Below are positions 6,189 to 28,594 of a stretch of DNA of 50,975 bases, in pieces. Positions within the stretch are counted from its first letter, which is position 1, and every line of letters begins with the position of its first letter. The translations under genes and the position numbers were made by a program. Origin of the DNA: Methanobacteriota archaeon (GTDB lineage Archaea > Thermoplasmatota > Thermoplasmata > RBG-16-68-12); contig VBMG01000040.1 in the NCBI GenBank assembly GCA_005878485.1, positions 1-50,975 on the forward strand, read 5' to 3'. The notes under the pieces are model-generated. The model ran no database searches. It was not told where the DNA came from and saw nothing but the letters and a program-made list of their open reading frames with translations.

Positions 6189-6191
6189 GCG

Positions 6192-9350: not shown

Positions 9351-12300
9351 TCAACGGGCAGAAACCGCCCGCACGGGACGCGTCGCGGCGGCGACCGCGT
9401 AGCCGCCCTGGATCAGCTTCTTGATGTACGGGGCCAAGACCCTCGCGAGGCCCATGTCTCCATCCCAATCCTCGAGCTGGTCCCATTGGTGGTCCTCCAT
9501 GTCGCGGATGCAGCGTTCGATCTGCTCCGTCCACGACTCCGTGCCGTCCCCTTCGATTCGCGCCGCGAGGACGAGCCATTTCCCTCGCCCGATTAGGATA
9601 TGCATCTGGCCGACTGTCATCTCGTTCAGCTCGCCCAGGTCGTCGCCCCGTAAGGCGTCCTTGACGAACGCCTGCACGGCGGTGAGCATGCCGCTCAGGA
9701 TGTCCGTGTCCACGTCCGGGCGGAGCCGGCGAGTCTCGTGTTTGATCAGGAGCCCGTCTTTGGCATTGAGCAAGAACACGTCCTCGATGATCGCGTCCTG
9801 TGACCTGGAGGCGGCCTTGACGGACGGCCTCGAGGGTTCCCTCGAACGGCGACGCACGAGGAAGAACAGCGTTCCGGCGACCCCCGCGGCGGCAATCACG
9901 AAGAGCCACCAATAGCTCGCGAGGAATCCTTGGGCGGTCGCGAACTGGAATGTCTTCGACTGGACCATCGTGTTCCCGGCCAGGTCCCGCGCGCTCGTAT
10001 CGACGACCACGAAGTAGGTCGTCCCAGACTGGAGCTCCCGGGTCGGCACGAACGTCACGCTGCGGGAGTCGGCGCTCCACTGGAAGGACCCATCGACCGC
10101 CGGCGAAATCGAGAACGCTTGCTCCACCGAGGCGCGGTCCATCGCTTCCGTGAATGTAATCCGGATCCACGGAGTCGTGTTCGTGTCCGCGCCAACCGGC
10201 CGCACGTCCGTCACGGACGGTGGCGTGATGTCGATCATGGTCCAGGTATCATTGCCGGCGGGAGCGGGCTCGACGTTGCCCGCGCGGTCCGTCGCGATCG
10301 AGCGGAACGCGACCACGCCCTGCCCGCTCGCCGTGAAGGTACCCGTGGTCGCGGCCGTGCCGACGAGCCAATTCGTCCAGCCCGCGCCGACATCGTACAG
10401 GACCGTGTACGTCGCGATGTCCGTGGTGCCGGCCGCCTGGCTCCAGGAAACCGCGAACTGAAGCCGGTTCTCGAAGGCCGGCAAGGAGGTCATGATCGAA
10501 TTGGGCGGGGTCACGTCCACGATCGTCCACGAGTCGTTTCCGGCAGGCGGCGCCTCGACGTTGCCCGCGCGGTCCGTCGCGATCGAGCGGAATTCATAAG
10601 TGTGGCCGTCCTGTCCCGTGAACGTGGCGGATGTCCCCGTCGACACAAGCCAATCCGACCAGCTTCCGCCATTGTCGCGCACCACAACCCGGTAGCTCGC
10701 GATGTCCAGGGTGTCGAACTGGGGTCCCCACGATACCATAAATCCGAGGGACGTCTCGTACGTCGGCAGCGGGAGCGTGTGGGAGAACGGGGCGATCGTG
10801 TCGACGATCGTCCAGGTGTCGTTTCCAGTCGGTGCGACCTCGACGTTGCCCGCGCGGTCCGTCGCGATCGACCGGAACGCGATGGGGCCCTGGTTGCCGC
10901 TGTTGAACGTCGCCGAGGTGGCGGTCGTCCCGACGAGCCAGTTCGTCCACCCCGTGCCCAAGTTGTATTGAATCGTATATGTGGCGATGTCCGTCACGCC
11001 CGCGTCCGGAGCCCACGAGACGAGGAACGAAGCCGAATTCTGATATGCGCTGAGCGCGTTCACGTGGGACCCCGGCCGGACCGTGTCGACCGTCGTCCAC
11101 GTATTGTTCGCGAACGGTCCGGACTGCACGTTGCCGGCGAGGTCGTCCGCCGTTGTCGCGAACTCGTAAACGCCGTCTGCGGAGGCTGTGAAGGTGAATT
11201 GGCCGAGGTTTCCCGCCGGTTGTGTCGCGTATGGAGACCAACCACCGCCCCCGGTCCGCACCCACAACGTGATGCTCCTCAGGCCGGTCCCATTGCCGTC
11301 CGAGGCCGTGTAACCAATCGTGAACGTTTGCGTGTTCTCGTACGTCGGGAGCGAGGTCGCCGCGGAGGTCGGCGCATCGCGGTCCACCATGACGAACGGC
11401 TCCGTGTGACTCGTGCTCATGTCGACGAACCGCGGATCACTCGCGAACGAGTAACTCGAGTACGTCACGGTGACCCGCGTCACGTTGTCGATCGGCAAAG
11501 GAGAGTCGATGTACACCCGGTCCGTCACGAGAATCCACGGTTGGATGCCACTCGGGGACGACCGATCCCAGATGGGTGATCCGTTGTCCTCGACGAGGAT
11601 GTGCGCCCCGGCGACCGGCGTCAGACCGTTCGGCCAGAGCGCGTCAACCTCGAGGAAGTTTTGGACCGTCAAATTGCCGGCGGCCATCACGGCCAATTTC
11701 GTGAACGGCGTGTTCACCGCGAAGCCTTCCGTGTAGTTGTCCACGAAGAACTCGTAGGATCCGACGGACGACAGGGATGCGTTTTCGACCGTGAAGCGGA
11801 TGGTCAAGGACCGATTGCCGACGAGGTAGTACCCATTCGCGTAGGACGCTTGCACGGGCAGACCCGCGCCGGGGGCTCCTTTCGCCACCCCCGAAATCGT
11901 GTCGCCGAGGGAAACGCCGTACCTCACGAGTCCGGCGACGATGCCGCTCGCGTCCCCACCGCGCCCCCCATTGGTTGGACCGAGGGAATCTCCTCCGCGT
12001 CCCCCTTGCAGCGTGTAGACCTGGTTCGTGTCGAGGGTCGGGGCGAGGTACAGTGCGGCGATCCCCCAAGCGCTCCCTCCATTCCCGCCGAACTTGCTTC
12101 CGATTCCCCCTACGCCACCCGTGACCGTCTGGATCAAGTTGAAGCTCATTGCCGTCGCGTTGAATCGACCGTCGTTGTAACCGATCGAGAGGACGCCCGT
12201 CGCATTTCCTCCGTAACCACCATGGGCGCCGCGGCCACCGTCTCCGCCGGTCAACGTGTCCATCGTGCTCGATCCTACACTCGCAGACCCGACGACGGAG

Positions 12301-13679: not shown

Positions 13680-14097
13680 GTGTGACACGGACTCCGCAGC
13701 GAGGGTTTGCCCCGCCCTAGTCTCGCCCCGTTTCCACACGACGCTATATTATCCAAAGGATGCCGTTATCGCAGGTGATATCGAATTCGTGTCGGAATAA
13801 CGGCCCGAGCAGAGGGTGACGCGACAACCTTCAAGGTGTCGTGAAGGCTTGCGCGGTCGGTGGCCTCTCGCGCTCGATGCAATCTTCTCCGCGTCCTCCA
13901 TCGCCATCGTTGGCGCATCCCGACACCGCGGAAAAATCGGATCGACCTGAACCCGGTTATCGCGCTCGACGAGGACCTCGGCTATCGCACTGTCGACGCC
14001 CGGATGTCCTGGAACTCCCCGGGCCTAACCAGACGACATCGACGCCGGCCGCGCAACGCTTGTAGCCTTGGAACGCTATCCAGGGCAGGGAAGCCGC

Positions 14098-14472
14098 ATG
14101 ATCCAAATCGATGTCGACGTCCCGGATCGTCCGGGTGAACTCGCGAAGCTTGCCGCGATTCTCGGAGCGACGGGGATCAACATCGATGCAATCAGCGCGG
14201 AATCCGCGGGCGGGCGGTCGTACATGAGCCTGATCGTAAACCAGCCGATGCAGGCCCGCGAAGCGTTGATGAAGAACGGGTATGCGTCGGCGATGCGGAC
14301 CGTCCTCGTCGTGCGGCTTGATGACAAGCCGGGAGCCCTCGCCTCGCTCGCGCGCAAGCTCGGCGACTCGGGCGTCGATGTGGTGAGCCTGATCCACCTC
14401 GGCACCGTCGGCGGCCACGCCCAGATTGCGCTCGGCGTCGACAACCTGGAGAAAGCACGGTCCCTCGTCTGA
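14098..14472 (+). CDS. Tandem ACT-domain protein (small-molecule binding regulator)
   Basis: Two ACT-like halves: IDVDVPDRPGELAKLAAILGATGINI and VVRLDDKPGALASLARKLGDSGVDV. ATG at 14098 chosen over the 14068 extension. Confidence 0.7.
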   Translation: MIQIDVDVPDRPGELAKLAAILGATGINIDAISAESAGGRSYMSLIVNQPMQAREALMKNGYASAMRTVLVVRLDDKPGALASLARKLGDSGVDVVSLIHLGTVGGHAQIALGVDNLEKARSLV

Positions 14473-14602
14473 CCGTCGCGGAACATACTCCATCTCAGGT
14501 TCGATAACGAGAATAGTCCCTCGGGATAGAAACGCTCAAGCCCGCCTGCGGTTCTATCTTACGCCATCCCGTTTTCGGACGGGTCATCCGGAGGTATCGA
14601 AA

Positions 14603-15298
14603 GTGCCGGAAGGTCATCGGGGCGGCCTCGGCGTTGTGCCGACGAATTTCACGACGCATGGACCGAAGACGGTCCCGCGCGTCGACTACGACCGGATCTT
14701 CGTCCTCGACGAGGACGCGAAGCTGCTTGGGGAATATGCCCTTCGAGACGACTGCCCGCTGGAATACGACGACCTTCGCCGAGCGATCCCCCTCAGCGGG
14801 ATGCGGCACCTTCTCTCCTTCTACCAGGGGGAATACGTTTTCACGCCATTCCGAGTGGGCGCCCTCTGGTTCGTCCTCTTGACCCAGGGCGTCCCCCGGA
14901 TCGAGGAGCGGGGCTCAATCGGAACCCTGCTGGCGGCGATGCGGGTCCACCTGCCGCCAAGCCTCTCGCCGACCCTCGCGGCACGGGAGGCGGCCCTCCG
15001 CGACCGGGAGCGCGAGCTGGAGGCTCGCGAGACGGTCGTGTCCAGGAAGGAGCAACGGGTCGTCCAACTCGAAGAGAAACTTGCGACGGCCAGGGAGAAA
15101 ACGGAAGACCTGGCCGCCGAGGTTCGCGCCCGCGAGAGCCGACTCAACGCGTTGCGCGATTACGCGATGGAGATACATCGGACATTCCAGCAAACCGAGT
15201 CGAGCGCGGGCCGCCCCGCGATTGCCGAAAGGGATTCGCCGGAGGACGGGGAACCGCCGCCGCGCTCACTTATCGCACGCCCTTCTCACGACCGATAA
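14603..15298 (+). CDS. Soluble paralogue of the cluster family: conserved ~90-aa module plus short coiled coil
   Basis: GTG at 14603 has GGAGG 8 nt upstream. RIFVLDEDAKLLGEYALRDDCPLEYDD aligns with the next gene and with the juxtamembrane region of the 3848-aa protein. A coiled-coil tail follows (RERELEARETVV...RLNALRDYAMEIHRTF). No TM segment. Confidence 0.65.
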   Translation: MPEGHRGGLGVVPTNFTTHGPKTVPRVDYDRIFVLDEDAKLLGEYALRDDCPLEYDDLRRAIPLSGMRHLLSFYQGEYVFTPFRVGALWFVLLTQGVPRIEERGSIGTLLAAMRVHLPPSLSPTLAAREAALRDRERELEARETVVSRKEQRVVQLEEKLATAREKTEDLAAEVRARESRLNALRDYAMEIHRTFQQTESSAGRPAIAERDSPEDGEPPPRSLIARPSHDR

Positions 15299-15312
15299 CC
15301 AAAGCCCGTTTC

Positions 15313-15338
15313 TTAAATAAGGCCCGGGCCGCTCGATT
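15313..15338 (+). promoter_or_regulatory. TATA box TTAAATAA + 10 nt + GCTCGATT
   Basis: Same 8+10+8 architecture as 16856..16881 upstream of the giant paralogue. Confidence 0.4.
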
Positions 15339-15391
15339 GTCCATCGACGAATCGCGAGGGGGCACCCTCGTGGAGCCGAGGCGGCCAGCGC

Positions 15392-16798
15392 ATGCAAGGG
15401 GCGATTGAGACACTGCTTTCAGGCCTCCTGATTCAGGGCCTCCGCCCCGCACTCGCTTCGATCCTAATCACCGCTCCGATGAAGAAAGTGGCTCGTGCGC
15501 AGCTCAAGAAAATCTACGTCCTCGATGAACGGGGTGAGATGGCTGGCGAGTACGTCCTCGACCCGGACTGCCCGATCGACTATAACGATTTCTTGAAGGT
15601 CCTTCCGAACGAAGGGATCGGAGATCGCGATTCGCTCTTCGTTGGGGAGTACGTGTTCACCGCGTTTCAGAGCGGCAAGTACGTGTTCGTCCTCCTGTCC
15701 CGAGGACAGCTGGGCGCCGAGGATGTGGACTGGACGGCTTTGCTTCTGACCGCCACGGAGTCGACTCTCGTACGCGGACCGGCTCGCCCAGCACCGACCC
15801 GGGGAGCCGGAACTAAGTCGGACTCCGAGAAGGGTTTCGCCGATCGCGACGCCCGCCTCGTGGCGAAGGAAAAGAATCTCGCTGAGTTGGAAGCGCGCCT
15901 TCAAGCGGAAGCGGCAAATCTCACGGGTCGTCAGGAAGAACTCGACCGTCAGAAAGCCCGGCTCGCGGCTCTGGCCGATTACTCCGCGCGGATGCAAGAC
16001 ACCGTCGCGACCGGACTGTCACGATCTCGAAAGGAGCTCGAGACAGCGCAGCAACTCGCGGCCAAGTCGTCTGCCGACTCGAAGACGACGGAGTCGAAGG
16101 CGGCCACGGACGCACGGCAGTCGTTCGAGCAAGAACGTAAGGCGCTCGTCGCTGCGAAGGCGGAACTCGAAGCGAAGGACCGGGAGGCAACCGCGCGTAT
16201 CGCGAAGCTCGAGCAAGATGCCAAGGATGCCATGTTGGCCCTCGAGAAGGAGCGAACGGCAAACGCCACACGAGCCGCGGAGGAAGAAAAGACCCGACGC
16301 GAAATCGAGGGCCGCGTCGCCGATTTGAGTCAGCGGTTCACATCGATCGCCAAGGAGCGCCTGGTATCGTCCCACCGCCCCGCGGAGGAAGCATCGGACG
16401 AGGTCCGGAAGGCGATGGAGGGCGAGAAAGCGGAGGTTGCCCGAGAGCGGAAGTTCCTTCAACGCCGGGCAATCGAGCTGCTGGACCGTGAGGACCGGGT
16501 TCGAGACCGTGAGGTCCATGTCGATGAACGCGAACAGGACTTCGCTCGGCGGGAGCAAGAGCTTTCGTCGCGCCAACAGGATTTCGAACGGCAGCGCACG
16601 CTCTTGGCCCAGGCGAAGCCCCAGCCTCCGGAGGTCCGGACGGAGCCGGACGAAGCGAAACGCGATATCGAGCGGCGTGTGAAAATCATCCAGCAGAAGG
16701 CACTCGAACTCTTGGACCGCGAGGAGAAACTCCGAAAACGGGCGGCGGAACTCGAGGCGATGGAGGCCCGGCTCTCCGGAAACGTCGCCGCCGATTAG
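15392..16798 (+). CDS. Cluster-family paralogue: conserved module plus ~330-aa coiled coil with twin C-terminal motif
   Basis: KIYVLDERGEMAGEYVLDPDCPIDYND module. Heptad-rich E/R/K/A/L sequence. Two motif copies, FLQRRAIELLDREDRVRDRE and RVKIIQQKALELLDREEKLRKR, shared with the 3848-aa protein. An alternative start is ATG 15479 (MKKVARAQ); the first 29 aa are hydrophobic. TAG stop. Confidence 0.7.
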   Translation: MQGAIETLLSGLLIQGLRPALASILITAPMKKVARAQLKKIYVLDERGEMAGEYVLDPDCPIDYNDFLKVLPNEGIGDRDSLFVGEYVFTAFQSGKYVFVLLSRGQLGAEDVDWTALLLTATESTLVRGPARPAPTRGAGTKSDSEKGFADRDARLVAKEKNLAELEARLQAEAANLTGRQEELDRQKARLAALADYSARMQDTVATGLSRSRKELETAQQLAAKSSADSKTTESKAATDARQSFEQERKALVAAKAELEAKDREATARIAKLEQDAKDAMLALEKERTANATRAAEEEKTRREIEGRVADLSQRFTSIAKERLVSSHRPAEEASDEVRKAMEGEKAEVARERKFLQRRAIELLDREDRVRDREVHVDEREQDFARREQELSSRQQDFERQRTLLAQAKPQPPEVRTEPDEAKRDIERRVKIIQQKALELLDREEKLRKRAAELEAMEARLSGNVAAD

Positions 16799-16855
16799 GG
16801 GCAAACGGCTCCGCATCGGCGCATGAAATCACGTCCGATAACCGCCCGCGGTCCC

Positions 16856-16881
16856 TTATATAGAGCGCGGGAAGCTCGATT
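16856..16881 (+). promoter_or_regulatory. TATA box TTATATAG + 10 nt + GCTCGATT upstream of the giant gene
   Basis: Strong TATA about 190 nt upstream of ATG 17048. Spacing to GCTCGATT is identical to 15313..15338. Confidence 0.4.
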
Positions 16882-17047
16882 TTTGCCGCTGGCCAGGGAG
16901 AGCCGCGCCCCGCGAAGGACGGATGCATGCGTACCCCGCTTACGACTGATGCGCTCCACCTCGGTGTGAGTCCGAGGACCATCGTCCTGCGGAAACTGCT
17001 CGCGACGATTTGGCGGTCCCGCCCGGCCACTCGGGCGTGAAGTACGG

Positions 17048-20000
17048 ATGAGGCCCGCGACGGCGCTGCTGCTCGTCTTCGTGCTCATCGCGACCGCTGG
17101 CCTCGCGGTGGCGGAACAGAAACTGCTGGATCCCTTCGCTGCGTTCCGCGGTCCCGATGGCTCCCTTCACATTCCCGGTTCCGCCCTAACGAACAATCTG
17201 CTCCGGGCGTTGTTCGGACCCAGGCCGGATCCGAACGCTCCGATCCGGCTCGCGGAGCGGGTGCCGTCGCCCTATCCGACCCTTGCAATCCGAATCGTCG
17301 AGATGGAATTTCCACAGCAGCCATCGTTTCGGTTTGTCCTTCGAATTCAGGATATCATTGGTTCGGTCAACCATGGCCTCAGCGCCGCCGCAAATGCGAT
17401 CACCGCGATAGGCCGCGCTGCGATCGCTGCTTTCTTCAATTTCCTGACGTCGGATGCGGCTGCCGCCGTGAACGTGGACACGACAACGGTTGCGGACGTG
17501 TTCCCTGCCGCCACCACCTGCACGACATCGCAGTCCGCGACGGCTGCGGATAACGGCGTTCTCGTGATGCTATCGGAACGTGGGACGACCACGTTCGCCT
17601 CCGTCACGTATGGATCGACAAGCCTCACCTTGGTCGCAGGCACAGCGGCGAACGGTGGGACTGTTGTACGAACGGAAATCTGGGGGTTCACGGGGACCCT
17701 TCCCGGAGGGCTTCAGACGATGACGGCGACCCTCTCGGGAGGCCAGACGGCGAAGATGAGCTGTGCGACGATCCTGCTACAGGGCGTGAGCCCGACTGGC
17801 TCGTTCATCCGGGGGACGAACAATGCCGCGAATTCGACGAACGCAAGCGTCACGCTTCTGGGGACGGTAGCGGTCGGAAATCTCGCCTTCGCCGTCGCCG
17901 TGCTCCAGCAGACCAACGGCGGGGCTCAGCCGACGGCGGTCACCGGTACAGGAGCTACGGCTACGGACCTGTACGGGGTCGCGGTCGGCCACTGCACGAC
18001 AGGGGCCTCCGCTGCATCGAACGAATGTGCCGCCGGGTCGGATATCCCGAACCCGGGCACCGCAATCACTTGGACGAACGCGGCCACGCAGTGGGTGGTC
18101 TCCGCCGTCGAGGTCGTGGCAGCTCCGCCGTGCGGAAACGGGAGCGGATTGTGCTACCGGATTGGGAACGGCGGCGCCTGGAATAGCGCCTCCAACTGGT
18201 CGAACTCCTCCGGAGGAGCCCCGTGCAGCTGCACTCCCGCGGCGACCGATGTCGCCGTCTTCAACGCGAATCCGACTGGAACGGTTACGCTGGCCGCAGC
18301 GACGACAATCGGCGGCATCGACATGACCGGATTCACGGGGACGCTCGACACGACCGCAGCGAACAGTTGGGCACTAACCGTGAACGGCAACTTCCTAGTC
18401 CAAGGGACATTCCTGGCTGAGAATTCGGCAGTGTCCGTCAGCGGCAACGTCGGCATCGTCTCCGCGGGAACGATCGTCAATCTCGGCGGATCGACGTGGA
18501 CCGTGAATGGGACCTGGACGAACGCTTCGACCTCATCGTCCTGGGTTGCGGGGACGAGCACGGTGACGATTGCCGATGCCGGAAATGCGACCCTAACCTT
18601 CGCCGCACTCACCGGGGGGACGAACGAGTTCAATAACATGACTCTCGACTCGATCGCAATTGGCGGTGCCGTGTATACGATGGCCATCAATGCGGTCCGC
18701 ATCGGAGCGGTCTTGACCGTCCGAAATTCAACGGCCGGCGCCACCGGCCCAACGATTTTGGACACATCGGGCTCCAACCTCGCGGTTACCGCTGGCAGTC
18801 TCGCCCTTTCCCTGCTCGGGAGTGTATCGGCAAACGGGTCTACGGTAACGATCAATGGGAACGTGACTGTCGGGGCGGCGGGCGCCTACTCGACCATGGG
18901 GACCTCCGTGTGGACCGTCACGGGCACGTGGACGAACGCCTCGACGTCCGCATCCTGGAGTGCCGGGACGAGCACGGTCACGTTCACCAGCGCGACGGGC
19001 GGGACAATGACGTTCGCGGGTTCGAACCTCGCCGGGAGCGAGTTCTACAACGTCGCATTTGCGTCTTCGGCGGCCTCCGCACAGACGTTCACGATGTCGA
19101 CGCGGGGATTGAATTGGGGCGGAACCCTCACCGTCTCGGATGCCTCGTCCTCGACCCAACTGGCCACGGCGAACCTGTCCCTAACCGGCGGAGGCCTGGT
19201 CATCGGCAACGGGGGCATCTTGACGGCCAACGCTTCGTCGGCATCCGTCTCGAGTGTGTCGATGACGGGAGGCACGAGCGGCACAATCACCTTGACCACG
19301 GGTACCGTCACTGACTCCGGAAACTGGGACACGAGCGGGGCCGGTTCGGTCTTCACGAAGGGGACCAGCACGGTCACGATGACGGGCGTGAGCAACATCG
19401 CGGTGCGAAATGCGAGCAACAACTTCAACAACCTGACCATCTCCACCGCCGGTGCCGTCACCCAGACGGGCCTCGTGGATGTGTCCGGGACGCTCGGTGT
19501 GAATGCGGGCGCGACCCTGGCGACCGGCACACAAACGCTCACCGTCGGCGTTCTCGCGGCAAACATGGCCGGGGGGATCACGGCGGGCCCCTCGGGCACG
19601 AAGACGATTGGGGGAAACGTGAGTATCGCCGCGGCGGGCTTCTTCAATTTCGGCGGGGCAACCTGGAATTTCAGCGGCGCCTGGACGAACGCCTCGACGA
19701 GCGCGTCGTGGGCACCGGGTACCGGGAACGTGGTGTTCCGCGATGCGGCAAGTCAGACGATGACGTTCAAAGCGTCCGGGACAGAGTTCCCGAATCTGAC
19801 GCTCGACACGACCGCCGTCGCAGGGATCACGTACACGATGGCAACGAATCCGCTCAATTCCGGAGGCACGCTCACGATCCAGAACAGCGTGGTCGGTCCC
19901 ACCGGGAACACGATCCTCACGACCGGCGCGAGCGGCCTCGGGATCACGGCGGCGGGCATCACGATTGGCATCAACGGAACGCTGACCGCGAGTTCCTCGA

Positions 20001-23000
20001 CGATTACAGACAACGGCAACTGGACCTCGACCGCGACGAATGCGACGCTGAACAAAGGCACGTCCACGGTCATCTTCGGAGCCATGGGGACGATCACGCT
20101 TGCCGCCGGACAGAGTTTCAACAACATGACCCAGGGCGCTGGGACGAGCACGTTGGGCGCCGCGCTCACCGTCACCGGCTTGCTCACGGTCAACGGCACG
20201 CTCAGCACGAGCGCGAGCAACTTCGCGCTCACGGCCCAAGGCGGGCTTACTGTGGGCGGCTCCGTGGTCGCGGGGACGTCCACTGTCGCGGTCACCGGGA
20301 GCGTGAACATCAGCGTAGCTGCAGGCTTCATTACCTCGTCCGCAGTCGGTTCCTGGACGGTGACGAACGGCAACTGGACGAACGCCTCGACCTCCGCCTC
20401 GTGGAACTTCGCCGCGCCCATCACGTTCACCTCGAGCGTCGCGCGAACGATGACCTTCGCCGGCGCGAACCTGAGCGGCAATGAGTTTGCCGGCACGGTC
20501 ACGTTCGACTCGAGCGTCGCGGCCGGAGTCACGTACACGATGGCAAGCCGAGGACTCGTCCTAGGCGGTTCGGTGCTGATCCGGAACACAGCGGGTGGAG
20601 CGACGGGCTACACCGTCCTGGATTCCTCGCCCTCCAACCTCTCGCTCACCGTTGGATCGCTCAGCCTCGCAAGCTTTGGAGCCATTAACACGCGACTCTC
20701 GACGGTTGCGGTGGGTGGGAGCGTCACCATGGGCGCCCCGAACACCTACGTGACGAACGCAGGCGGATCGTGGACGGTCAGCGGTCCCTGGACGAACGCG
20801 TCGACGTCCGCTTCTTGGAGCTTCGCGGCGCCGATCATGTTCAATTCGTCCGCCTCGCAGACGATGACGTTCGCGAGTCTGACCCAGGAGTTCACGGGCA
20901 ACGTCACGTTTAATTCCGGCGCGGCCACGGTGACCTACACGATGGCCTCGAACGCGCTCACCACCGGCGGGACGCTCACCGTCTCCGGCGGCGCCGGGAC
21001 CACGACCCTGAGCACGAGCAGCTCCAATCTTCCGATTTCTGCTGTCGCACTGAACGTGGGCGCCGGCGGCAGTCTGGCCGCCAACGGGTCGCTCATCACC
21101 GTCACATCGGTGGACACGCATCTCGGCACGTTTGCGGTTGGGACATCCACCGTCGTCATCGGTGCCTCGGGCGGCACGGTCAACGTTCCTCAGACCTTGT
21201 ACAACCTAACGGTCAATTCGGGCATCAACACGACGTTCGTCTCGAACCTGGCTTGGTCTGCGATCCTCACACTGACGGGCGCCGTACCAACCCTCAACGG
21301 CAACCTCTCCTCCGTCGGACCGGCGACCCTTACCATGACGTCGTCGACGACATCGATCGCGGGGTCGTGGAACACGTCCTCGACCGTGGCTCTCGCATCG
21401 ACCGGCTCTTCGGTCACGTTCACGGGCGCGGCCCAGACGATCACGCTTGGGGTGAGCCAGCAATTCAATTCCTTGACGATTGCCGGGAGCATCTCCGTCG
21501 CGTCGAACCTCACCGCCACGAGCCTCACCGTGAACGTCGGGAGCACGTTGACGAAGACGGGTCACACCATCGTCTTCAACAGCCTCACGGTCAACGGGAC
21601 GATCGCCGACGGATCCGTCAACGTCTCGAACCTGACCGTGACGAACAGCGATGGGACGGCCCTCGTGACGATCTCCGTCTTCAGCGGATGGACAACGGGG
21701 TCTTCCTACGCGTGGACGCATACGTCGAACGAGGCGTCGCAGACGATCACATGGACGATCGGAGGGAACGTCGTCGGAAATCAGTTCAACGTGACGAAGA
21801 ACGGGTCGCCCTTCGCGAGCGGCACGGTCAGTGGCTCCGGCCAAGTCGTCTTCACGATGTTAGGTTCGGATCCGACTATGCAGGTGAGTCTCGGCGCGCC
21901 GTGTGCGGCCAACCGGTATTGGGTCCAAGGGAACGGCAACTGGAATGACACGAACCATTGGTCCGGCTTTTCCGGCGGAGGCTTCGGTTGTTCGGTTCCC
22001 GGGTCCTCGAACGCTGTCTTCTTCGACGGCAGTTCCGGGTCGGCCACGGTCACGATCAACGCCAATGCCTCCATGGCATCCCTGAACACAACGGGATTCA
22101 GCGGCACAATTGCGATTGGAGTCTACGACGTCTCGATTGGCGGCAATGTCATTCAGGCGGGCGGGACAATCACGATTGGCGCGTCGAACGGAAATGGGCT
22201 CGCGGTCAACGGCTCGCTGACCCTTTCCGGGACCGCGAGCATCCAGATGAGTGGCGCGTCGAACGGATCCGTATCAGGAAACGTCACCATCTCGTCCCCG
22301 ACCGCGTTCATCGCGTTTGGGAGCGGCACGTGGACCGTGATCGGTTCTTGGAGCAACTCCTCCTCGAGCAACTCATGGGCCGCGGGGACCGGGACCGTGG
22401 TGTTTGCTGCCGGTTCGCCGCAGGTCATGACCTTTGGGAATCTGACAATCTCCGAATTCTACGACATCCAGATCCGTCCTCCGGCCGCAACGACGTTCAC
22501 GATGGCGACGAACGGCCTGCAGTGGAGCGGGACACTCACCCTCAGCAGCAACGCGACCCTCGTGACGGCAAACCTTGCCCTCACGGGAGGGAATCTCATC
22601 GTCGGCAACGGAGCCGCGCTGACCGCGGGGACATCCGCCGTGGGTGTCGCCAACGTCGCGATGACCGGAGGGACCTCCGGAACCATCACGGCTTCGGGCT
22701 CGTGGACCGTGTCCGGAAACTGGGACACGTCCGGCGCAGGCTCTGCATTCGTCGGTACCTCAGCAACGGTGCTCCTGACCGGAAACGGCGTCACGGTTCG
22801 CATCCTAGACGCCGCGAATGGCTTCGGCACCCTCACAATCACGGGCTCGGTCTCGGCGGCATCTGCAATCGTCGTAGCGGCCCTCCTGACGGTGAACGGC
22901 ACCTTCGATACGACCGCGGCCAACTACGCCCTCACGATGGGCGGCGGGCTGACGCTCGGCGGAGCCAACGCGACCCTCCGGACGCAGGCCTCGAATGTCT

Positions 23001-26000
23001 CCATCACGGGCAACGTGACTGTCGCGAACGCCTCCGGGGTCATCGGGTCGGCGAGCGGCGGCTCGTGGATCGTTTCGGGCTCGTGGACGAACGCGTCCTC
23101 GTCCGCATCTTGGAGCTTCTCGGCCCCGATTACATTCAACTCGTCGTCGGCTCGGAGCATGATGTTCGCGGCCCTTCCGTCCGGCAACGCCGAGTTCGTC
23201 GACGTGACATTCGACGGCGGCGCATCGACGGTCACGTACACGATGGCGGCAAACACCCTTGTCTGGTCCGGCACTCTGCGCGTCCAAGGCGGGAGCGGGA
23301 CCACGACTCTCGTTACCGCCAATCTTGGGCTCGCCGGTGGCTCTCTAACAATTGGCAACGCCGGCATCCTGATGGCCTCCGGCTCACCCGTGATCGTATC
23401 CAACGTCACGGTGACGGGCGGCAGCTCTGGAGTGATCATCGTGACGAGTGGGAGCTGGACCGTACTCGGTAACTGGGACAGCTCCGGCGTGGGCTCCATA
23501 TTGACCGCGGGAACCTCGACGATGACCTTTGCCGGGACATCCAAGACGATTTCCCTTGCGCCTGTCCAAGCGTTCAACCGCGTCACGATTGCCGGGACGA
23601 CCTCGATGTCGTCCACATTGACGGCTGCGACACTGACGGTGAATAGCGGCGCGATCCTGACGAAGACCGGCCACGGCATCGTCTTCAACGCGTTGACCGT
23701 GAACGGGACGATCGCGGACGGATCCGTGAACGTCTCGAACCTCACGGTGACGAACAGCGACGGGACGGCCCTCGTCACCATCTCCCTCTTCAGCGGATGG
23801 TCAACCGGATCCTCGTATGCGTGGACGCACACCTCGAGCGAGACGACGCAGACGATCACGTGGACGATCGGAGGGAACACGGCCGGGAATCTGTTCAACG
23901 CAACGAAGGACGGGTCGTCCTTCGCGAGTGGCGCGGTCAATGGGTCCGGACAAGTCGTCTTCACGATGCTCGGGTCGGATCCGGACATGAAGGTGACCGT
24001 GACTCCGCCGCCCATCCCGGCGTGGTGGCAGTCTCCCTACGTGCTCGCCGTTCCGCCGATCGGCGTGTTTCTGGTGGTAGCCATGTTTGCGCAGCGCGCG
24101 CGCTGGAGGCCCGCGAAGGCCTTCCTTGTGGACGAACGCGGTCGAATGCTCAGGGAATTCACCCTGGACCCGTCCTGTCAGGTCACGTACGACCAGGCAG
24201 TGGGGGCGGGCGTGCTCGACGCGGTCGAGAAGCCCATCAAGGTCGCGAAGTACCACGGCCAGACGGTCCGCGGGGACGCCCTCGCTGTCGTCCTTCTCGC
24301 CTACGGGCCAGTCACCGCGGAACAGGTCGGATTCGCACGGGAGATGCTCGTCCAGGTCCAAGATAAATTCGAGGACGCCGTCAAGCAGCGGCTCGAGGAG
24401 GTCCGGAGCCAGGAGGCCACCCTCCAGGCCGAGGCAAAGAGCGTCGAGGAACGGCAACACGCCCTCGAAATCCGAGCGAGCGAAATCGAATCGACGATGA
24501 AGCAGATTGAAGCCGCGCAATTGAACGTCGCCAGCGACAAGGCGGGCCTGGAAGCAACGGAGGGAGACCTGAAGCGCCGGGAGGCGGAGTTAGCGGAGAG
24601 CCGCCGGTCGACCGACGAACTCGCGCGGCAACTCGAGGAGAAGCAGAAATCGCTCGAGACGCGCGCAGTGGAAATTGCGGCCCAGAGCGATGCGGTCGAC
24701 GCGAGGACGGAGGCTATCCGGGCGCGCGAAGAGACCGCCACCGCGCTCGATGCGGAACTGCGGCGGAGAAACGAGGCAGTCACGAGCCAGGAGACCAGTC
24801 TGAAAAACGAGGCGGACCGGGTGGCGGCCCAGGACTCGTCCGTCCGAGCACGGCTCGAGGAGGCGGAGCGACGCGAGGCGGGAGTTCGAGATGGTGAAAC
24901 GGCCTTCGCGGCGAACCGCGAGAAGTTCGAGGCCGACCAGAAGGAGCTGATGGAATTCAAACGATCAATCGAAAATCGGGTCGCCGAGGTCGATGCGGCA
25001 GAACAGTCGCTCGCGAACAGGGAGAAAACGCTGGACGCTCGCGAGGCGCGGATCACCCCCGTCGAGGCCGACCTCACGCGCCGTGAAGGCGCGACCACGC
25101 AACTCGAGGAGGACCTGGCCGGCCGAAAGGTCCTCATGCAAGCCGCGAGGAAGGAAATCGCCGAACGCAGCACCGATCTGGAAACCAGGGAAGCGGCTCT
25201 CGCTCGCGGAACCGAACAGGTTGAGACGGCTCGACGGTCCCTCGAGACCGAACGCCGCACGATCGAAGAGGTTCAGCAACAGGCCCGACAGGCGTTCGAG
25301 GCGGCACAGAGCCTCGAGGCCGCCACGTTGGCGAGGTCGAAAGACCTCGACCTTCGGGAGACCCGAATCGCGCCCGCCGAGCGACAACTCGACGAGCGGA
25401 CGAAGGAACTCGACGCGAGGCAAGCGGATTTGGCGTCTCGGGACGAACAGCTGGCGGCGAGAGCCCAATCCTTGGACACAGCGACGCAGGAACTCGGAGC
25501 CCGGGATCAGAGTCTGCAAGAAGATCAGGTGGTCCTCGGAGAGGCCCGGGCCGCCTTTGAGGCCGATCGACGAGAACTTCAAGACGAGGTCGCCCGGCAC
25601 GAGTCGGAAGTCCGTCGACGCAAGGCCGACCTAGACGCCCAGGCCAAGACCTTGGGTGAGGATCAACTCCGCATGGCCCAAGACCGGGAGGCCTTCGATG
25701 CATCGCAGGCGGAGAAGAATCAGGCAATCCTTTCCCGAGAAATCGAGCTCGAGGCGCGGGAACAATCCCTCCGGGAGAAGGAAGGGGCCGTGCGGGGGCA
25801 AGCCGAAGAGAACGCGCGACGGCTCACGGAGCTGGCTGCTCGAGAGGAATCTTTGGAAATCGAGGGTGCGAAGCTCGACAAGGCCCGCGCGGAACTTGAC
25901 GCGCGGAAAGTCGGCCTCGCCGACGTCGCGAAGGAACTCGATGGAAAGGCGGCCCGACTCCGGGAGGAGGAAGCGAAGCGGGCTGAAGAACTCCGCACCT

Positions 26001-28594
26001 GGCAAGGAACCCTCGAGTCCGAACAGGCGCTACTGAAACAACAGCGGGAGACGTTTGAGGAGGAGGCCTCGACCATGCGGACTGCCTGGGCAGATCGGGT
26101 CATGCGAATCGAGGCCCAAGAGGTCGACCTCGAGGAACGAGAAGAGCGAGTCCGTGGGGACACCGATCGGATTGCCCGGACCGAGGAGGAGCTTAAGCGC
26201 CGCGAAACGGCCGCGGAGGGGGCCGCCCAGGTCGCCTCCCAGATGAAAGAGGAGGCGGAACGAATCCGACGCGAGAGCGAGCAGCGGCTCCTGGAAGTCG
26301 AGTCGAGAGAGCGGGCCCTCCGGGAGGAGGCCGCGCATCACGCGATCGAGCTCACGAAGGAGACGGAACGGTTGAACGCAATCGAAAGCGACCTTGCCGG
26401 GAAACGGTCCGAGTTCGAGCAACTGCATACTGCCCGTACCGCCGAGCTCCGCCAGACGGAAACGGAGCTCGAGAAGAACGCCCAAGCGCTCGATGCGAAC
26501 GGGCGTGAGCTCGCCGAGCGAGAGAGCCGGCTCGTTGCAAGGGAGGAAACAGTACGGCAATCCGAGCTCCGACTTCAGAGGGAACACGAGGACGTCCAAG
26601 CCGGAGCGAAGCAACTCGAATCGCGGGAGCTCGAGCTTACGCAGTTGAAGGACCGATACGACTCCGAAGCCGCGCAAATCCGCAACGAGCTCGAGGGCAT
26701 GCGCCAGTCGGTCGCGGCCAAGGAGACGGAACTCCGCGCGGAGCGAGAACGGATCGAACGGGACTCGTCCGCGCTTCAAGAGACCCTTGGTGCGAAGGCG
26801 AAGGAAATGGCGCTGCGGGAGAAAGCGCTCACCGCGCGAGAGGAAGAATCCCGGGCCGACGAGCAGGAGCTCGAGGCGCGAGGACGGGAGCTGGAGTCGA
26901 AAGAACGCCAGACGGAAGCGCGGACGACCGAACTCTCGGCCCAGGCGATGGCACTCATCCGACGGGAACAGGACCTCAACACGCGCGCGGCGCAAATTGA
27001 GCAGACGGTCCGCAGGGTCGAAACCGAAGCCGCAGAGAAGCGTCGGGAGTGGGAATCCGTCCAAGCGACCTTGCGATCGCAGCAGGCCCAACTGACCGCA
27101 ACGGCGGAGACTCGCGCGGCGGACTTGGCGAAACGAACCCAGGAAGTCGAGGGACGCGAAAGGACCCAACGGGCATGGTTCGCCCAGTTTGAGCTGGAGC
27201 GGTCCAAAGTCGACGCGCAGGCGAAGGCCGTCGCCGCCAAGTCGGCGGAGGCGGAGGCCGCATGGCAACGCTCCGAGGCGCGCCTCGCCGAGCTGAAGAC
27301 GAAGGAGAACGAGACCCTTCGTGCCCGTCAAGCGTTCGAATCGGAACGCTCTACCTGGGCCACCCGCCGAGCCGAAGAGCTGAAACAGCTTGAAGCCACG
27401 CGGGATGCGGCCGGGCAGCAGGCACAGCAGGCCGAACGGCTGGTTTCCGAATCTCAACGCCGCGCGCTAATCGCCGAGGAGGCGGAACGAGCCGCGAAGC
27501 GACAGGCGGCGGATCTCGCGACGCAACAGACTTCCCTTGAGAAACGCCGGTCGGAAGCCGAAAAGGCGGAGCACGATGCGCAGGCGCACATCGCCCAGCT
27601 TCAAGAGGCTTCGCGCAACTTGGCCATGAAAGAAATGAACATCGCGGCAGCGACCAAGGATCTCGAGGCACGGCAGTCGCGGATCTCCGCGTCGGAGCGG
27701 GAAGTCGCGAGCCGCGAGGCGGACCTCCGTTCGAAGAAGACGTCGGTGGATCAGGATGCAGCGCGCGTCGCCGCCCTATCCGAACAGCTCGCGACGCGAC
27801 AGCGAGACTTGGAATCTCGGACGGCGAGCCAGGAGGCGAAGTCCGCGCAGATGTCAAGCAAAGAACAGACGCTCGCGACCGAGCTCCAGCGAGCGGACAA
27901 CTTGATGGAGGACCTCGATAAGAAGGAGCGGGAGATTCGGGCCCGCGATGAGGCCTTGAAGGCATCCGAGGCGACCTTGACGGCTCGAGAAAGCGAAGTC
28001 ACCGCTCGGGACGCCGAGCTTCGGGACGGCACCCGGGGCCTCGAAAAACTTCGCCAGGAGTTGAACGGCCAGCGAGCAGCGACGGAAGAGGCCCGCCGGG
28101 TCGCGGACACGACGCGCGAGGAATCGGAAGTGATGAAACGCGACGCGGAAAAGCTCCGGGCCCAAGCCGGTGCGATGCAGGCGGAGGTCGCCACAAACCT
28201 GCGATTCCTCCAGAAAAAGGCCCTCGACGTGCTCGATCAAGAGGAGAAGATCCGGGATCGTCTCACGCGTATCGAGGAACGAGAGAGGTCTCTGGACGCG
28301 CGGGCGGAAATCCTCGAAGGGAAGGAGCGGACCCTGACGGATGACCAGGCCGATCTCGACGCGAAGACGGCGAAACTGCAGGCGGAGATTGACCGGCTCC
28401 AAGGCCGCCTGGCGGATGCCGAGAAAGCCGGCGGCCCATCCACGGCCGCGATGGAAGAGTGGAAGAAAGATGTCGAGAACCGCGTGAAAATCATCCAGAA
28501 GAAAGCGATGGACCTGCTGGACCGCGAGGAGAAGCTTCGCAAGAAGGAGGAAGAGCTCCGCGCCCTCGCGGAGCAGCTTGGCGCGAGCCGCTGA
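17048..28594 (+). CDS. Giant (3848 aa) single-pass membrane protein: signal peptide, ~2300-aa repetitive extracellular region, TM, conserved cytoplasmic module, ~1400-aa coiled coil
   Basis: Uninterrupted 11.5-kb ORF. Signal peptide MRPATALLLVFVLIATAGLAVA. Seven modules marked by G-WT(V)-G-WTNASTSASW...GTSTVTF, with many N-x-S/T sequons. TM at about 24030-24092 (YVLAVPPIGVFLVVAMFA) followed by RARWR. KAFLVDERGRMLREFTLDPSC module. Continuous E/R/A/L/Q heptad-like sequence runs to the C-terminus, with the twin motif FLQKKALDVLDQEEKIRDR and RVKIIQKKAMDLLDREEKLRKK. Confidence 0.85.
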   Translation: MRPATALLLVFVLIATAGLAVAEQKLLDPFAAFRGPDGSLHIPGSALTNNLLRALFGPRPDPNAPIRLAERVPSPYPTLAIRIVEMEFPQQPSFRFVLRIQDIIGSVNHGLSAAANAITAIGRAAIAAFFNFLTSDAAAAVNVDTTTVADVFPAATTCTTSQSATAADNGVLVMLSERGTTTFASVTYGSTSLTLVAGTAANGGTVVRTEIWGFTGTLPGGLQTMTATLSGGQTAKMSCATILLQGVSPTGSFIRGTNNAANSTNASVTLLGTVAVGNLAFAVAVLQQTNGGAQPTAVTGTGATATDLYGVAVGHCTTGASAASNECAAGSDIPNPGTAITWTNAATQWVVSAVEVVAAPPCGNGSGLCYRIGNGGAWNSASNWSNSSGGAPCSCTPAATDVAVFNANPTGTVTLAAATTIGGIDMTGFTGTLDTTAANSWALTVNGNFLVQGTFLAENSAVSVSGNVGIVSAGTIVNLGGSTWTVNGTWTNASTSSSWVAGTSTVTIADAGNATLTFAALTGGTNEFNNMTLDSIAIGGAVYTMAINAVRIGAVLTVRNSTAGATGPTILDTSGSNLAVTAGSLALSLLGSVSANGSTVTINGNVTVGAAGAYSTMGTSVWTVTGTWTNASTSASWSAGTSTVTFTSATGGTMTFAGSNLAGSEFYNVAFASSAASAQTFTMSTRGLNWGGTLTVSDASSSTQLATANLSLTGGGLVIGNGGILTANASSASVSSVSMTGGTSGTITLTTGTVTDSGNWDTSGAGSVFTKGTSTVTMTGVSNIAVRNASNNFNNLTISTAGAVTQTGLVDVSGTLGVNAGATLATGTQTLTVGVLAANMAGGITAGPSGTKTIGGNVSIAAAGFFNFGGATWNFSGAWTNASTSASWAPGTGNVVFRDAASQTMTFKASGTEFPNLTLDTTAVAGITYTMATNPLNSGGTLTIQNSVVGPTGNTILTTGASGLGITAAGITIGINGTLTASSSTITDNGNWTSTATNATLNKGTSTVIFGAMGTITLAAGQSFNNMTQGAGTSTLGAALTVTGLLTVNGTLSTSASNFALTAQGGLTVGGSVVAGTSTVAVTGSVNISVAAGFITSSAVGSWTVTNGNWTNASTSASWNFAAPITFTSSVARTMTFAGANLSGNEFAGTVTFDSSVAAGVTYTMASRGLVLGGSVLIRNTAGGATGYTVLDSSPSNLSLTVGSLSLASFGAINTRLSTVAVGGSVTMGAPNTYVTNAGGSWTVSGPWTNASTSASWSFAAPIMFNSSASQTMTFASLTQEFTGNVTFNSGAATVTYTMASNALTTGGTLTVSGGAGTTTLSTSSSNLPISAVALNVGAGGSLAANGSLITVTSVDTHLGTFAVGTSTVVIGASGGTVNVPQTLYNLTVNSGINTTFVSNLAWSAILTLTGAVPTLNGNLSSVGPATLTMTSSTTSIAGSWNTSSTVALASTGSSVTFTGAAQTITLGVSQQFNSLTIAGSISVASNLTATSLTVNVGSTLTKTGHTIVFNSLTVNGTIADGSVNVSNLTVTNSDGTALVTISVFSGWTTGSSYAWTHTSNEASQTITWTIGGNVVGNQFNVTKNGSPFASGTVSGSGQVVFTMLGSDPTMQVSLGAPCAANRYWVQGNGNWNDTNHWSGFSGGGFGCSVPGSSNAVFFDGSSGSATVTINANASMASLNTTGFSGTIAIGVYDVSIGGNVIQAGGTITIGASNGNGLAVNGSLTLSGTASIQMSGASNGSVSGNVTISSPTAFIAFGSGTWTVIGSWSNSSSSNSWAAGTGTVVFAAGSPQVMTFGNLTISEFYDIQIRPPAATTFTMATNGLQWSGTLTLSSNATLVTANLALTGGNLIVGNGAALTAGTSAVGVANVAMTGGTSGTITASGSWTVSGNWDTSGAGSAFVGTSATVLLTGNGVTVRILDAANGFGTLTITGSVSAASAIVVAALLTVNGTFDTTAANYALTMGGGLTLGGANATLRTQASNVSITGNVTVANASGVIGSASGGSWIVSGSWTNASSSASWSFSAPITFNSSSARSMMFAALPSGNAEFVDVTFDGGASTVTYTMAANTLVWSGTLRVQGGSGTTTLVTANLGLAGGSLTIGNAGILMASGSPVIVSNVTVTGGSSGVIIVTSGSWTVLGNWDSSGVGSILTAGTSTMTFAGTSKTISLAPVQAFNRVTIAGTTSMSSTLTAATLTVNSGAILTKTGHGIVFNALTVNGTIADGSVNVSNLTVTNSDGTALVTISLFSGWSTGSSYAWTHTSSETTQTITWTIGGNTAGNLFNATKDGSSFASGAVNGSGQVVFTMLGSDPDMKVTVTPPPIPAWWQSPYVLAVPPIGVFLVVAMFAQRARWRPAKAFLVDERGRMLREFTLDPSCQVTYDQAVGAGVLDAVEKPIKVAKYHGQTVRGDALAVVLLAYGPVTAEQVGFAREMLVQVQDKFEDAVKQRLEEVRSQEATLQAEAKSVEERQHALEIRASEIESTMKQIEAAQLNVASDKAGLEATEGDLKRREAELAESRRSTDELARQLEEKQKSLETRAVEIAAQSDAVDARTEAIRAREETATALDAELRRRNEAVTSQETSLKNEADRVAAQDSSVRARLEEAERREAGVRDGETAFAANREKFEADQKELMEFKRSIENRVAEVDAAEQSLANREKTLDAREARITPVEADLTRREGATTQLEEDLAGRKVLMQAARKEIAERSTDLETREAALARGTEQVETARRSLETERRTIEEVQQQARQAFEAAQSLEAATLARSKDLDLRETRIAPAERQLDERTKELDARQADLASRDEQLAARAQSLDTATQELGARDQSLQEDQVVLGEARAAFEADRRELQDEVARHESEVRRRKADLDAQAKTLGEDQLRMAQDREAFDASQAEKNQAILSREIELEAREQSLREKEGAVRGQAEENARRLTELAAREESLEIEGAKLDKARAELDARKVGLADVAKELDGKAARLREEEAKRAEELRTWQGTLESEQALLKQQRETFEEEASTMRTAWADRVMRIEAQEVDLEEREERVRGDTDRIARTEEELKRRETAAEGAAQVASQMKEEAERIRRESEQRLLEVESRERALREEAAHHAIELTKETERLNAIESDLAGKRSEFEQLHTARTAELRQTETELEKNAQALDANGRELAERESRLVAREETVRQSELRLQREHEDVQAGAKQLESRELELTQLKDRYDSEAAQIRNELEGMRQSVAAKETELRAERERIERDSSALQETLGAKAKEMALREKALTAREEESRADEQELEARGRELESKERQTEARTTELSAQAMALIRREQDLNTRAAQIEQTVRRVETEAAEKRREWESVQATLRSQQAQLTATAETRAADLAKRTQEVEGRERTQRAWFAQFELERSKVDAQAKAVAAKSAEAEAAWQRSEARLAELKTKENETLRARQAFESERSTWATRRAEELKQLEATRDAAGQQAQQAERLVSESQRRALIAEEAERAAKRQAADLATQQTSLEKRRSEAEKAEHDAQAHIAQLQEASRNLAMKEMNIAAATKDLEARQSRISASEREVASREADLRSKKTSVDQDAARVAALSEQLATRQRDLESRTASQEAKSAQMSSKEQTLATELQRADNLMEDLDKKEREIRARDEALKASEATLTARESEVTARDAELRDGTRGLEKLRQELNGQRAATEEARRVADTTREESEVMKRDAEKLRAQAGAMQAEVATNLRFLQKKALDVLDQEEKIRDRLTRIEERERSLDARAEILEGKERTLTDDQADLDAKTAKLQAEIDRLQGRLADAEKAGGPSTAAMEEWKKDVENRVKIIQKKAMDLLDREEKLRKKEEELRALAEQLGASR
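21413..21886 (+). repeat. Copy 1 of an intragenic 474-bp duplicated segment
   Basis: Encodes ...LTKTGHTIVFNSLTVNGTIADGSVNVSNLTVTNSDGTALVTISVFSGW...VVFTMLGSDPTMQV. Long identical nucleotide runs are shared with 23522..23995, offset exactly 2109 bp (703 codons). Confidence 0.85.
23522..23995 (+). repeat. Copy 2 of the intragenic duplicated segment
   Basis: Encodes ...LTKTGHGIVFNALTVNGTIADGSVNVSNLTVTNSDGTALVTISLFSGW...VVFTMLGSDPDMKV, immediately before the TM segment. Confidence 0.85.

Follow-up and report, generated by a model that had tools for sequence, protein, structure and literature searches.

Eukaryotic vesicle-coat and SNARE proteins are the best-known carriers of the longin fold. Longin and roadblock domains commonly heterodimerise (LAMTOR, Mon1-Ccz1, the AP sigma and mu subunits) and are usually discussed in connection with eukaryotic membrane traffic; in archaea the discussion chiefly concerns the Asgard group. 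Here we describe a locus in a soil Thermoplasmata archaeon (lineage RBG-16-68-12), contained in a stretch of 50,975 nucleotides (contig VBMG01000040.1 of assembly GCA_005878485.1) that is referred to below as the window. A minus-strand gene, D, lies divergently from a plus-strand series made up of a tandem ACT-domain gene and three further genes, A, B and C. By their sequences, the tandem genes A, B and C are paralogues within a family widespread in Thermoplasmata, in which a longin-like head of ~95 amino acids (aa) leads into a long alpha-helical rod. D encodes a surface glycoprotein that stands apart from these, and its ~150-aa tail belongs to a second longin-like family, the standard cytoplasmic tail of many Thermoplasmata surface proteins. 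A first-pass annotation, made by a model from the letters and translated open reading frames (ORFs), had read the four genes as paralogues forming a single envelope-spanning assembly. That reading is revised here. The nearest relatives of the window are all metagenome-assembled genomes from soil or sediment, labelled Thermoplasmata or Methanobacteriota archaeon.

A head module common to A, B and C

Unmasked BLASTP aligned A with B at an E value of 1e-23, B with C at 4.8e-8 (B residues 19-112 against C residues 2336-2427) and A with C at 8e-5. Over ~95 residues the three modules are collinear, and R, E, C, Y, V, L, G and E columns are invariant. When the family profile was run against the ORFs of the window, exactly A, B and C were matched, at 1e-33 to 9e-42. 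Together, the BLASTP results, the alignment and the profile matches make the paralogy of A, B and C solid, and the module that had been reported for three adjacent plus-strand genes survives profile comparison.

The breadth of the family was estimated from an exhaustive HMMER search, with the proteins clustered at 50% identity. It has 105 representatives at this identity (E<=1e-3), and the module is always followed by a helix rich in E, R, K, A and L. Three forms occur: soluble proteins with an N-terminal module (200-880 aa), proteins with a short N-terminal anchor, and giants of up to 4767 aa. C is the giant form, in which a variable glycoprotein ectodomain, one transmembrane helix, the head at the inner face and the rod follow one another. 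Other Thermoplasmata lineages (35 species) carry a single soluble head-plus-rod member, with a stop-to-stop ORF mostly of 740-890 aa.

The names attached to homologue clusters are “hypothetical protein” and, once, “chromosome segregation ATPase”. The latter name, that of homologue P0254, was rejected, as the protein has no SMC_N domain and no ABC-type head. SMC models gave sub-threshold matches on the coiled-coil part (E 0.012-0.34, 8-13 bits against cut-offs >560), and weak matches to SMC, RNase Y, ATG16 and SlyX reflect coiled-coil composition alone. Searches with phmmer and against Pfam, NCBIfam and PDB profiles returned nothing usable for the modules, the C ectodomain or the rod. Neither Pfam, NCBIfam nor the literature searched (longin or roadblock with Thermoplasmata, coiled coil or SNARE-like) held a description of these proteins, in line with the earlier remark that no system of this composition had been described.

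Predicted fold of the head and of the D tail

The B module (B residues 1-135) was modelled with AlphaFold2 from an alignment of 40 sequences drawn from the A, B and C families, with a predicted local distance difference test (pLDDT) score of 87-95 over residues 40-120. The module has the order beta-beta-alpha-beta-beta-beta-alpha (strands E37-44 and E50-55, helix H64-70, strands E81-84, E87-94 and E97-104, helix H109-126). An AlphaFold2 model of the D tail, built from 22 sequences, reached a mean pLDDT of 75 and a predicted template-modelling score (pTM) of 0.72. Its order is beta-beta-alpha-beta-beta-beta-alpha-alpha (E6-14, E20-25, H34-53, E62-65, E68-74, E78-85, H90-112, H119-132), one C-terminal helix more than in the B module. 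In these models, the connectivity of the heads is of the longin type.

Foldseek comparison of the two predicted models with solved structures in the PDB retrieved almost exclusively longin and roadblock domains. Across both models the matches include AP sigma and AP mu N-terminal domains, zeta-COP, Sec22b, VAMP7, TRAPP, Mon1-Ccz1, LAMTOR and MglB/MglC. For the D tail, 24 matches had E<=1e-3; AP-1 and AP-2 sigma, zeta-COP, Mon1-Ccz1 and Sec22b were found at 1.6e-5 to 1e-3 with template-modelling (TM) scores of up to 0.75 (AP-1 sigma3, E 1.6e-5, TM 0.58/0.70; Sec22b, TM 0.64/0.75). The B module matched the AP-2 mu N-terminal domain best (E 1.5e-3, TM 0.51-0.57), followed by zeta-COP, MglC, Roadblock/LC7, TRAPP, VAMP7, LAMTOR and Ykt6 (E 1.5e-3 to 2e-2, TM ~0.5). 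At least 14 PDB chains are common to the top-50 lists of both models. Sequence identity to the structural matches is 8-20%.

Sequence libraries were silent on both modules. Pfam returned no family at E<=10, Longin, Clat_adaptor_s, Sybindin, Sedlin and Robl_LC7 included, and NCBIfam held no model for either. The profile search of the PDB gave nothing for the D-tail profile and chance-level matches only for the B-module profile (E 0.8-1.8). Secondary-structure order and three-dimensional similarity therefore agree with the longin superfamily, and a sequence match to a curated family is lacking. Taken together, the AlphaFold models and Foldseek matches support what had been put forward as an unverified guess from the strand and helix pattern, a roadblock- or longin-like module.

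The D tail is a distinct and mobile family

The relationship of D to the other three genes is of another order. BLASTP aligned D with none of A, B and C, and hhalign of profiles made from close homologues gave a probability of 0.3%. Broad profiles were then compared: genome loci supplied 43 non-redundant D tails for one, and the exhaustive HMMER search supplied 73 non-redundant A/B/C-type modules for the other. These align over 94 collinear columns with a probability of 77%, an E value of 2e-5 and a score of 35; the best score among 31 reversed or column-shuffled controls was 14.8. The register is the one proposed by the first-pass annotation, and a deletion at helix 1 fits the shorter helix in the B model. 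With no link by BLAST or shallow profiles and a weak one by broad profiles, D is a very remote relative at best. The D tail and the A/B/C head may descend from a distant common ancestor, or at least follow one fold pattern, and are clearly distinct families. Of the four paralogues originally claimed, A, B and C stand, while D shares the fold class and the 77% profile match and is not an ordinary paralogue.

Across the 76 loci of the D-tail family, the domain is nearly always the last one and lies directly behind a transmembrane helix. Its carriers are surface proteins of ~200 to 2959 aa, found across Thermoplasmata including Methanomassiliicoccales and SG8-5, and genomes of the window's lineage encode at least three such proteins. 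The domain also occurs in other settings. In small proteins it is C-terminal to several zinc ribbons, either with an N-terminal membrane segment (loci L038, L041 and L049) or with the ribbons alone (L037). At L052 (4319-4744, minus strand) it interrupts a STAND/AAA_16-type ATPase with TPR repeats, splitting the Walker A region from the remainder of the protein. The zinc-ribbon fusions and the STAND insertion indicate a mobile domain that is not merely a surface-protein tail.

Topology and surface architecture

Topology was judged from KD19 hydropathy, basic flanks and the distribution of N-x-S/T sequons. Each of C and D starts with a signal-like segment and has a single transmembrane helix late in the protein (KD19 ~2.1), as expected of the single-pass surface proteins they had been taken for. 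The helix is followed by a basic stretch, QRARWRPAK in C and RRRSREPSRPSVK in D. Sequons before and after the helix number 67 and 1 in C, and 19 and 0 in D. This distribution, together with the basic stretch, fits a cytoplasmic module, and the C head and D tail are consistently predicted to lie on the cytoplasmic side, where the first-pass annotation had placed them.

The earlier description of A and B as soluble is doubtful for B. Its first 29 residues are conserved and weakly hydrophobic (KD19 1.2-2.0 among orthologues), and they align with the transmembrane helix of C, so B may be membrane-associated rather than soluble.

The two surface parts differ in what can be recognised. D runs from a signal or anchor segment through a NosD-type beta-helix, a Gly-rich region, Ig-like repeats and Big_5 to the transmembrane helix and cytoplasmic tail (Pfam/NCBIfam: NosD 1.1e-8, Big_5 4.9e-17, OmpL47-type 1.3e-8). 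The C ectodomain matched no known domain family in Pfam, NCBIfam and PDB sequence searches, and the beta-helix/Ig arrays formerly ascribed to both surface proteins are thus borne out for D and not for C. Both resemble archaeal surface (S-layer or adhesin-like) glycoproteins, D by its domains and C by its sequons, signal peptide and late helix. Comparison of the C ectodomain split in two revealed an internal duplication, in which residues ~360-1460 and 1460-2330 are 39-49% identical (E 6e-50). Each half closes with a near-identical ~115-aa module (TKTGH.IVFN.LTVNGTIADGSVNVSNLTVTNSDG...), and the motif WTNASTSASW occurs in 7 copies in the ectodomain.

Helical rods and shared motifs

Past the head, A, B and C continue into Pro-poor helical sequence rich in E, R, K, A and L; D has no rod. 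In the cytoplasmic part of C, E, K, R, Q, A, L and D make up 75% of residues and Pro 0.2%, and one stretch of 1020 aa contains no Pro. Heptad windows make up a fraction of 0.34 in C, against 0.15±0.03 in shuffles, and 0.62 in A, against 0.16, with ~80 aa of heptad-rich helix after the A head. The claim that the module leads into coiled coil in three of the four proteins agrees with the helical sequence of A, B and C and with the heptad signal of A and C.

The length of the cytoplasmic part is nearly constant. From module to C-terminus, C orthologues measure 1392-1591 aa (1392-1489 residues from module start to end in L077, L090, L101 and L107), whereas their ectodomains range from 905 to 3258 aa. 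In three giants from different 50%-identity clusters (P0206, P0211 and P0214; 2874, 4099 and 4767 aa), exactly 1415 aa follow the module. The constancy of this part, set against a more than threefold variation of the ectodomain, hints at a ruler-like or structural role. If it formed one continuous coiled coil, the cytoplasmic region of C would extend for ~200 nm. The C orthologue at L106 is apparently frameshifted, with 884 aa after the module start and an aberrant C-terminus.

Two short motifs connect the paralogues. Two copies of an approximate LQKKALxLLDREEKLR motif end B, C and distant members of the family. RLxALRDYAxxMQ is common to A and B, ~60 residues past the head (RLNALRDYA in A; RLxALADYS at residue 190 in B). 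B accordingly shares one element with A and another with C.

Gene neighbourhood

The gene order Pup-ligase, AAA, D, ..., ACT, A, B, C, Cys/Met enzyme recurs in ~25 species-level genomes, and D shares a contig with the ACT-A-B-C block in ~20 species. Within the lineage the ACT gene is a constant neighbour, directly upstream of A (or B) in every relative, and only there. A is absent from the six closest species, where ACT is followed by B (L001/L089, L002/L080, L005/L081, L006/L085, L007/L086 and L062/L083).

In most relatives, a glyoxalase gene and a gene for a 706-aa ADP-forming acetyl-CoA synthetase lie between D and ACT. At L005 the synthetase gene is intact at 3803-5923 in this interval. 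The window has no glyoxalase gene there, and it keeps only residues 6-28 (23 aa, 96% identical) and 672-697 (26 aa, 65%) of the synthetase, fused to one another (tblastn with the L005 protein). The remnants and the missing glyoxalase gene point to a deletion of ~2.5 kb, and the tight divergent arrangement of D and ACT is therefore secondary. Judged from tblastn coordinates, L001 appears to have a similarly short D-ACT gap of ~0.6 kb.

These data bear on the proposal that the four genes form one unit. Conservation in related genomes is upheld for ACT-A-B-C, in ~25 species. D is set apart from it by two metabolic genes, and its adjacency in the window results from deletion, which argues against a single unit. 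The entire region is syntenic across the lineage, so the proximity of D carries little functional weight. Outside the lineage, among the loci examined, no D-tail gene was found within 8 kb of an A/B/C-type gene and no module within 10 kb of a D-tail gene. When the intergenic regions were scanned for TATA boxes, one TATATA was found, upstream of C (16857).

Coordinates and flanking genes

The features of the locus are collected in Table 1. Translation confirmed the ORF positions given earlier for D, A, B, C and the ACT gene, and the peptides quoted at that time were found in these ORFs. The tandem ACT gene reported within the cluster is likewise recovered, with Pfam ACT matching twice. Third-position GC is 0.72-0.82 across D, ACT, A, B and C, as in coding sequence.

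Table 1 Features of the D to C interval, in positions of the window.
Feature	Position	Strand	Basis and remarks
Gene D, surface protein	9351-13739	-	ORF; 1442-1462 aa (1462 aa counted from first GTG)
D transmembrane helix	9852-9914	-	Residues 1276-1296, hydropathy
D cytoplasmic tail domain, longin-like	9381-9809	-	Residues 1311-1453; family profile 1.2e-59
Acetyl-CoA synthetase (ADP-forming) remnants	13873-14006	+	tblastn, between D and ACT gene
Tandem ACT-domain gene, 134 aa	14068-14472	+	Pfam ACT, two stretches, 3.5e-17; ACT_8 pair 3.8e-9
Gene A, 231 aa, GTG start	14603-15298	+	Start backed by orthologues, e.g. P0151 (231 aa, same start)
A head module	14660-14956	+	Family profile
Gene B, 468 aa	15392-16798	+	ORF, orthologues, family profile
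B head module	15473-15769	+	Family profile; AlphaFold model
B LQxKALELLDREE motifs, two copies	16454-16495 and 16685-16726	+	Motif
Gene C, 3848 aa	17048-28594	+	Translation, hydropathy, orthologues in L077, L090, L098, L101, L107
C ectodomain, ~2300 aa, N-x-S/T-rich, behind signal peptide	17048-24031	+	Hydropathy, sequon count
C transmembrane helix	24032-24097	+	Residues 2329-2350, KD19 2.08; then basic QRARWRPAK
C longin-like head module	24098-24376	+	~Residues 2351-2443; family profile 1.1e-33; BLASTP to B 4.8e-8
C helical rod, ~1400 aa	24377-28591	+	Composition, heptad count
C LQKKALxLLDREEKLR motifs, two copies	28205-28246 and 28490-28531	+	At rod end; kept in orthologues and distant members

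The flanks are housekeeping in character. On one side they encode a homologue of Pup ligase and an AAA ATPase of the proteasomal type, on the other a Cys/Met enzyme dependent on pyridoxal phosphate. The Pup-ligase family gene (4893-6188, minus strand; PF03136, 1.8e-87) stands beside the AAA ATPase gene, whose product has an OB domain (6192-7871, minus strand), and the pair is conserved beside D in ~20 Thermoplasmata genomes. The literature found describes pupylation as actinobacterial, which makes an archaeal PafA/Dop-like pair worthy of note. A charged 66-aa ORF (4733-4933, minus strand) overlaps the 3' end of the Pup-ligase gene and ends in ...AKFKAQKGQGGDRRA. This end faintly recalls the C-terminus of Pup (...QKGGQ); the ORF has no Pfam match and is offered as a lead only. 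Between the genes for an M16 peptidase and the Pup ligase lies a free-standing LAGLIDADG endonuclease ORF (3738-4676, minus strand; PF00961, 1.8e-9) with two LAGxxDxEG motifs; G+C is lower in this area, 0.605-0.615 across 4001-8000.

Proposed role and alternatives

The sequence data support a family of head-plus-rod proteins that are anchored to the inner membrane face or recruited there, with C linking a large glycosylated ectodomain to a cytoplasmic rod of ~200 nm if it is one continuous coiled coil. The reading that we favour, by analogy with longin and roadblock domains and with long coiled-coil scaffolds, is that A, B and C would build a sub-membrane scaffold and D would dock independently; we put its probability at roughly 0.45. 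At the membrane, the heads would serve as platforms for dimerisation or docking, a role that longin and roadblock domains have elsewhere. The rods would pair into coiled coils, giving a scaffold beneath the membrane that ties the surface glycoprotein to the cell interior. A and B, as shorter paralogues, could co-assemble with C through the shared head and motifs. The tail of D would provide an analogous but independent site of docking or dimerisation, D being a neighbour by synteny and not a demonstrated partner. A membrane-anchored head-plus-rod scaffold of A, B and C is plausible on these grounds.

Several observations weigh against this scaffold. For the A/B/C head, Foldseek lends modest support (best E 1.5e-3, TM ~0.5). 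The coiled-coil call comes from composition and a crude heptad count, which for B is not significant (0.17 against 0.14±0.05 in shuffles), and single-alpha-helix (ER/K) rods remain an alternative to coiled coil. The absence of A from six close species makes A dispensable, and gene gaps of 94-250 bp do not require a single transcript. At the 35 distant loci no informative partner stands beside the family, where housekeeping synteny alone is seen (P-type ATPase, DNA ligase, PolX, kinase and glycosyltransferase genes).

The assembly originally proposed would go further, with the D tail heterodimerising with the A/B/C heads so that two surface arrays are held on one scaffold. Such pairing is common for longin and roadblock domains, the D tail and the A/B/C head belong to one fold class with a weak profile match (hhalign 77%), and D and ACT-A-B-C occupy the same contig in ~20 species. 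The shared contig loses force, however, when the whole neighbourhood, including the Pup ligase, AAA ATPase and Cys/Met enzyme, is syntenic, when most relatives have two unrelated metabolic genes between D and ACT and a deletion brought the two together in the window, and when the two families never come within 8-10 kb of each other at the loci examined outside the lineage. Genomes of the lineage also encode at least three D-tail proteins elsewhere, at other loci. We consider a four-gene assembly distinctly unlikely. Matches to MglB, MglC, LAMTOR/Ragulator, Mon1-Ccz1 and TRAPP suggest instead that the heads might regulate a small GTPase, as a platform for guanine nucleotide exchange or GTPase activation, with C and D as surface receptors and the rods as spacers. 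The insertion of the D-tail domain into a STAND/AAA_16-TPR signalling ATPase (L052) would suit such a role. Yet no small GTPase was seen among the window ORFs scanned or the conserved neighbours at 35 loci (whole genomes were not searched), and a conserved cytoplasmic part of 1392-1591 aa is unexpected in a simple switch regulator. Signalling of this kind seems to us about as unlikely.

Membrane remodelling, in which these proteins would form, fuse or tether vesicles in the manner of longin SNAREs and golgins, is a far less probable explanation. The three building blocks are those of longin SNAREs, and A, with its 231 aa and a head plus 80-aa heptad helix, resembles Ykt6 in size and layout. 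However, the order is reversed (transmembrane helix, head, rod), the rods are 5 to 25 times the length of a SNARE motif, and no NSF- or SNAP-like partners were seen. Membership of the longin SNAREs was rejected on the reversed domain order and the absence of a Synaptobrevin/SNARE match in Pfam. Finally, the module could be a chance or compositional likeness, or the giant ORFs might not be genes. The sole point in favour of an artefact, that BLAST fails to match D with A, B or C, is set against E values down to 1e-23 inside the window, hundreds of homologues with conserved columns, a third-position GC of 0.72-0.82 as coding sequence should have, orthologues kept in ~25 species and confident AlphaFold cores. 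We count this explanation as already refuted.

These proteins are candidates for the attachment of large surface glycoproteins to the cell interior in these archaea, many of which are believed to have no rigid wall. Longin-like domains fused to transmembrane anchors and very long helical rods, widespread in Thermoplasmata, widen the known architectural range of the fold. A bolder formulation, which we regard as unlikely, is that two undescribed Thermoplasmata longin families operate at the inner membrane face, one as a universal cytoplasmic tail of surface glycoproteins and the other as the head of ~200-nm membrane-skeleton rods with a direct tie to giant surface proteins. Were it true, a prokaryotic surface-to-interior coupling would be built from a longin domain, a coiled coil and a transmembrane helix, parts that eukaryotes later used for coats, SNAREs and tethers.

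Comparison with known systems

The fold described here is known; the two sequence families and the ectodomain-helix-head-rod architecture are found in no curated library or searched literature. The nearest likeness is to longin domains (AP-1/AP-2 sigma, the mu N-terminal domain, zeta-COP, Sec22b/VAMP7/Ykt6, TRAPP Bet5/Trs20 and Mon1-Ccz1), which have the same predicted order, give the best Foldseek matches and, like the heads here, are placed at the cytoplasmic face of the membrane. Here, by contrast, the domain is placed behind a transmembrane helix and, in A, B and C, ahead of a very long rod, and its host is a Thermoplasmata archaeon, neither eukaryotic nor of the Asgard group. According to a review (PMC4917890), the longins of Lokiarchaea are not associated with a coiled-coil or SNARE region, which gives the combination in a non-Asgard class some interest.

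Roadblock/LC7/MglB domains are dimerisation platforms of the same fold superfamily, and MglB, MglC, Streptomyces Roadblock/LC7 and Asgard Roadblock2 are among the Foldseek matches. These matches are weaker (TM 0.3-0.5), and the models start with a strand and no preceding helix. There is also no Robl_LC7 match in Pfam, and no adjacent small GTPase gene was found. The longin SNAREs Ykt6, Sec22b and VAMP7 likewise combine a longin-type domain, a heptad helix and a membrane anchor, but with the order reversed; the helices here are far longer and no SNARE motif was detected in them. Coiled-coil-rich cytoskeletal proteins of bacteria (crescentin, FilP/Scy, Ccrp) and eukaryotic membrane-to-skeleton linkers such as the LINC complex or golgins similarly have long Pro-free helical rods with conserved terminal motifs. 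They have no sequence relationship to the proteins of this locus, and neither a longin-like head nor a glycosylated ectodomain of 900-3200 aa. The likeness to membrane-to-skeleton linkers lies in the proposed role, the joining of a membrane protein to an internal scaffold.

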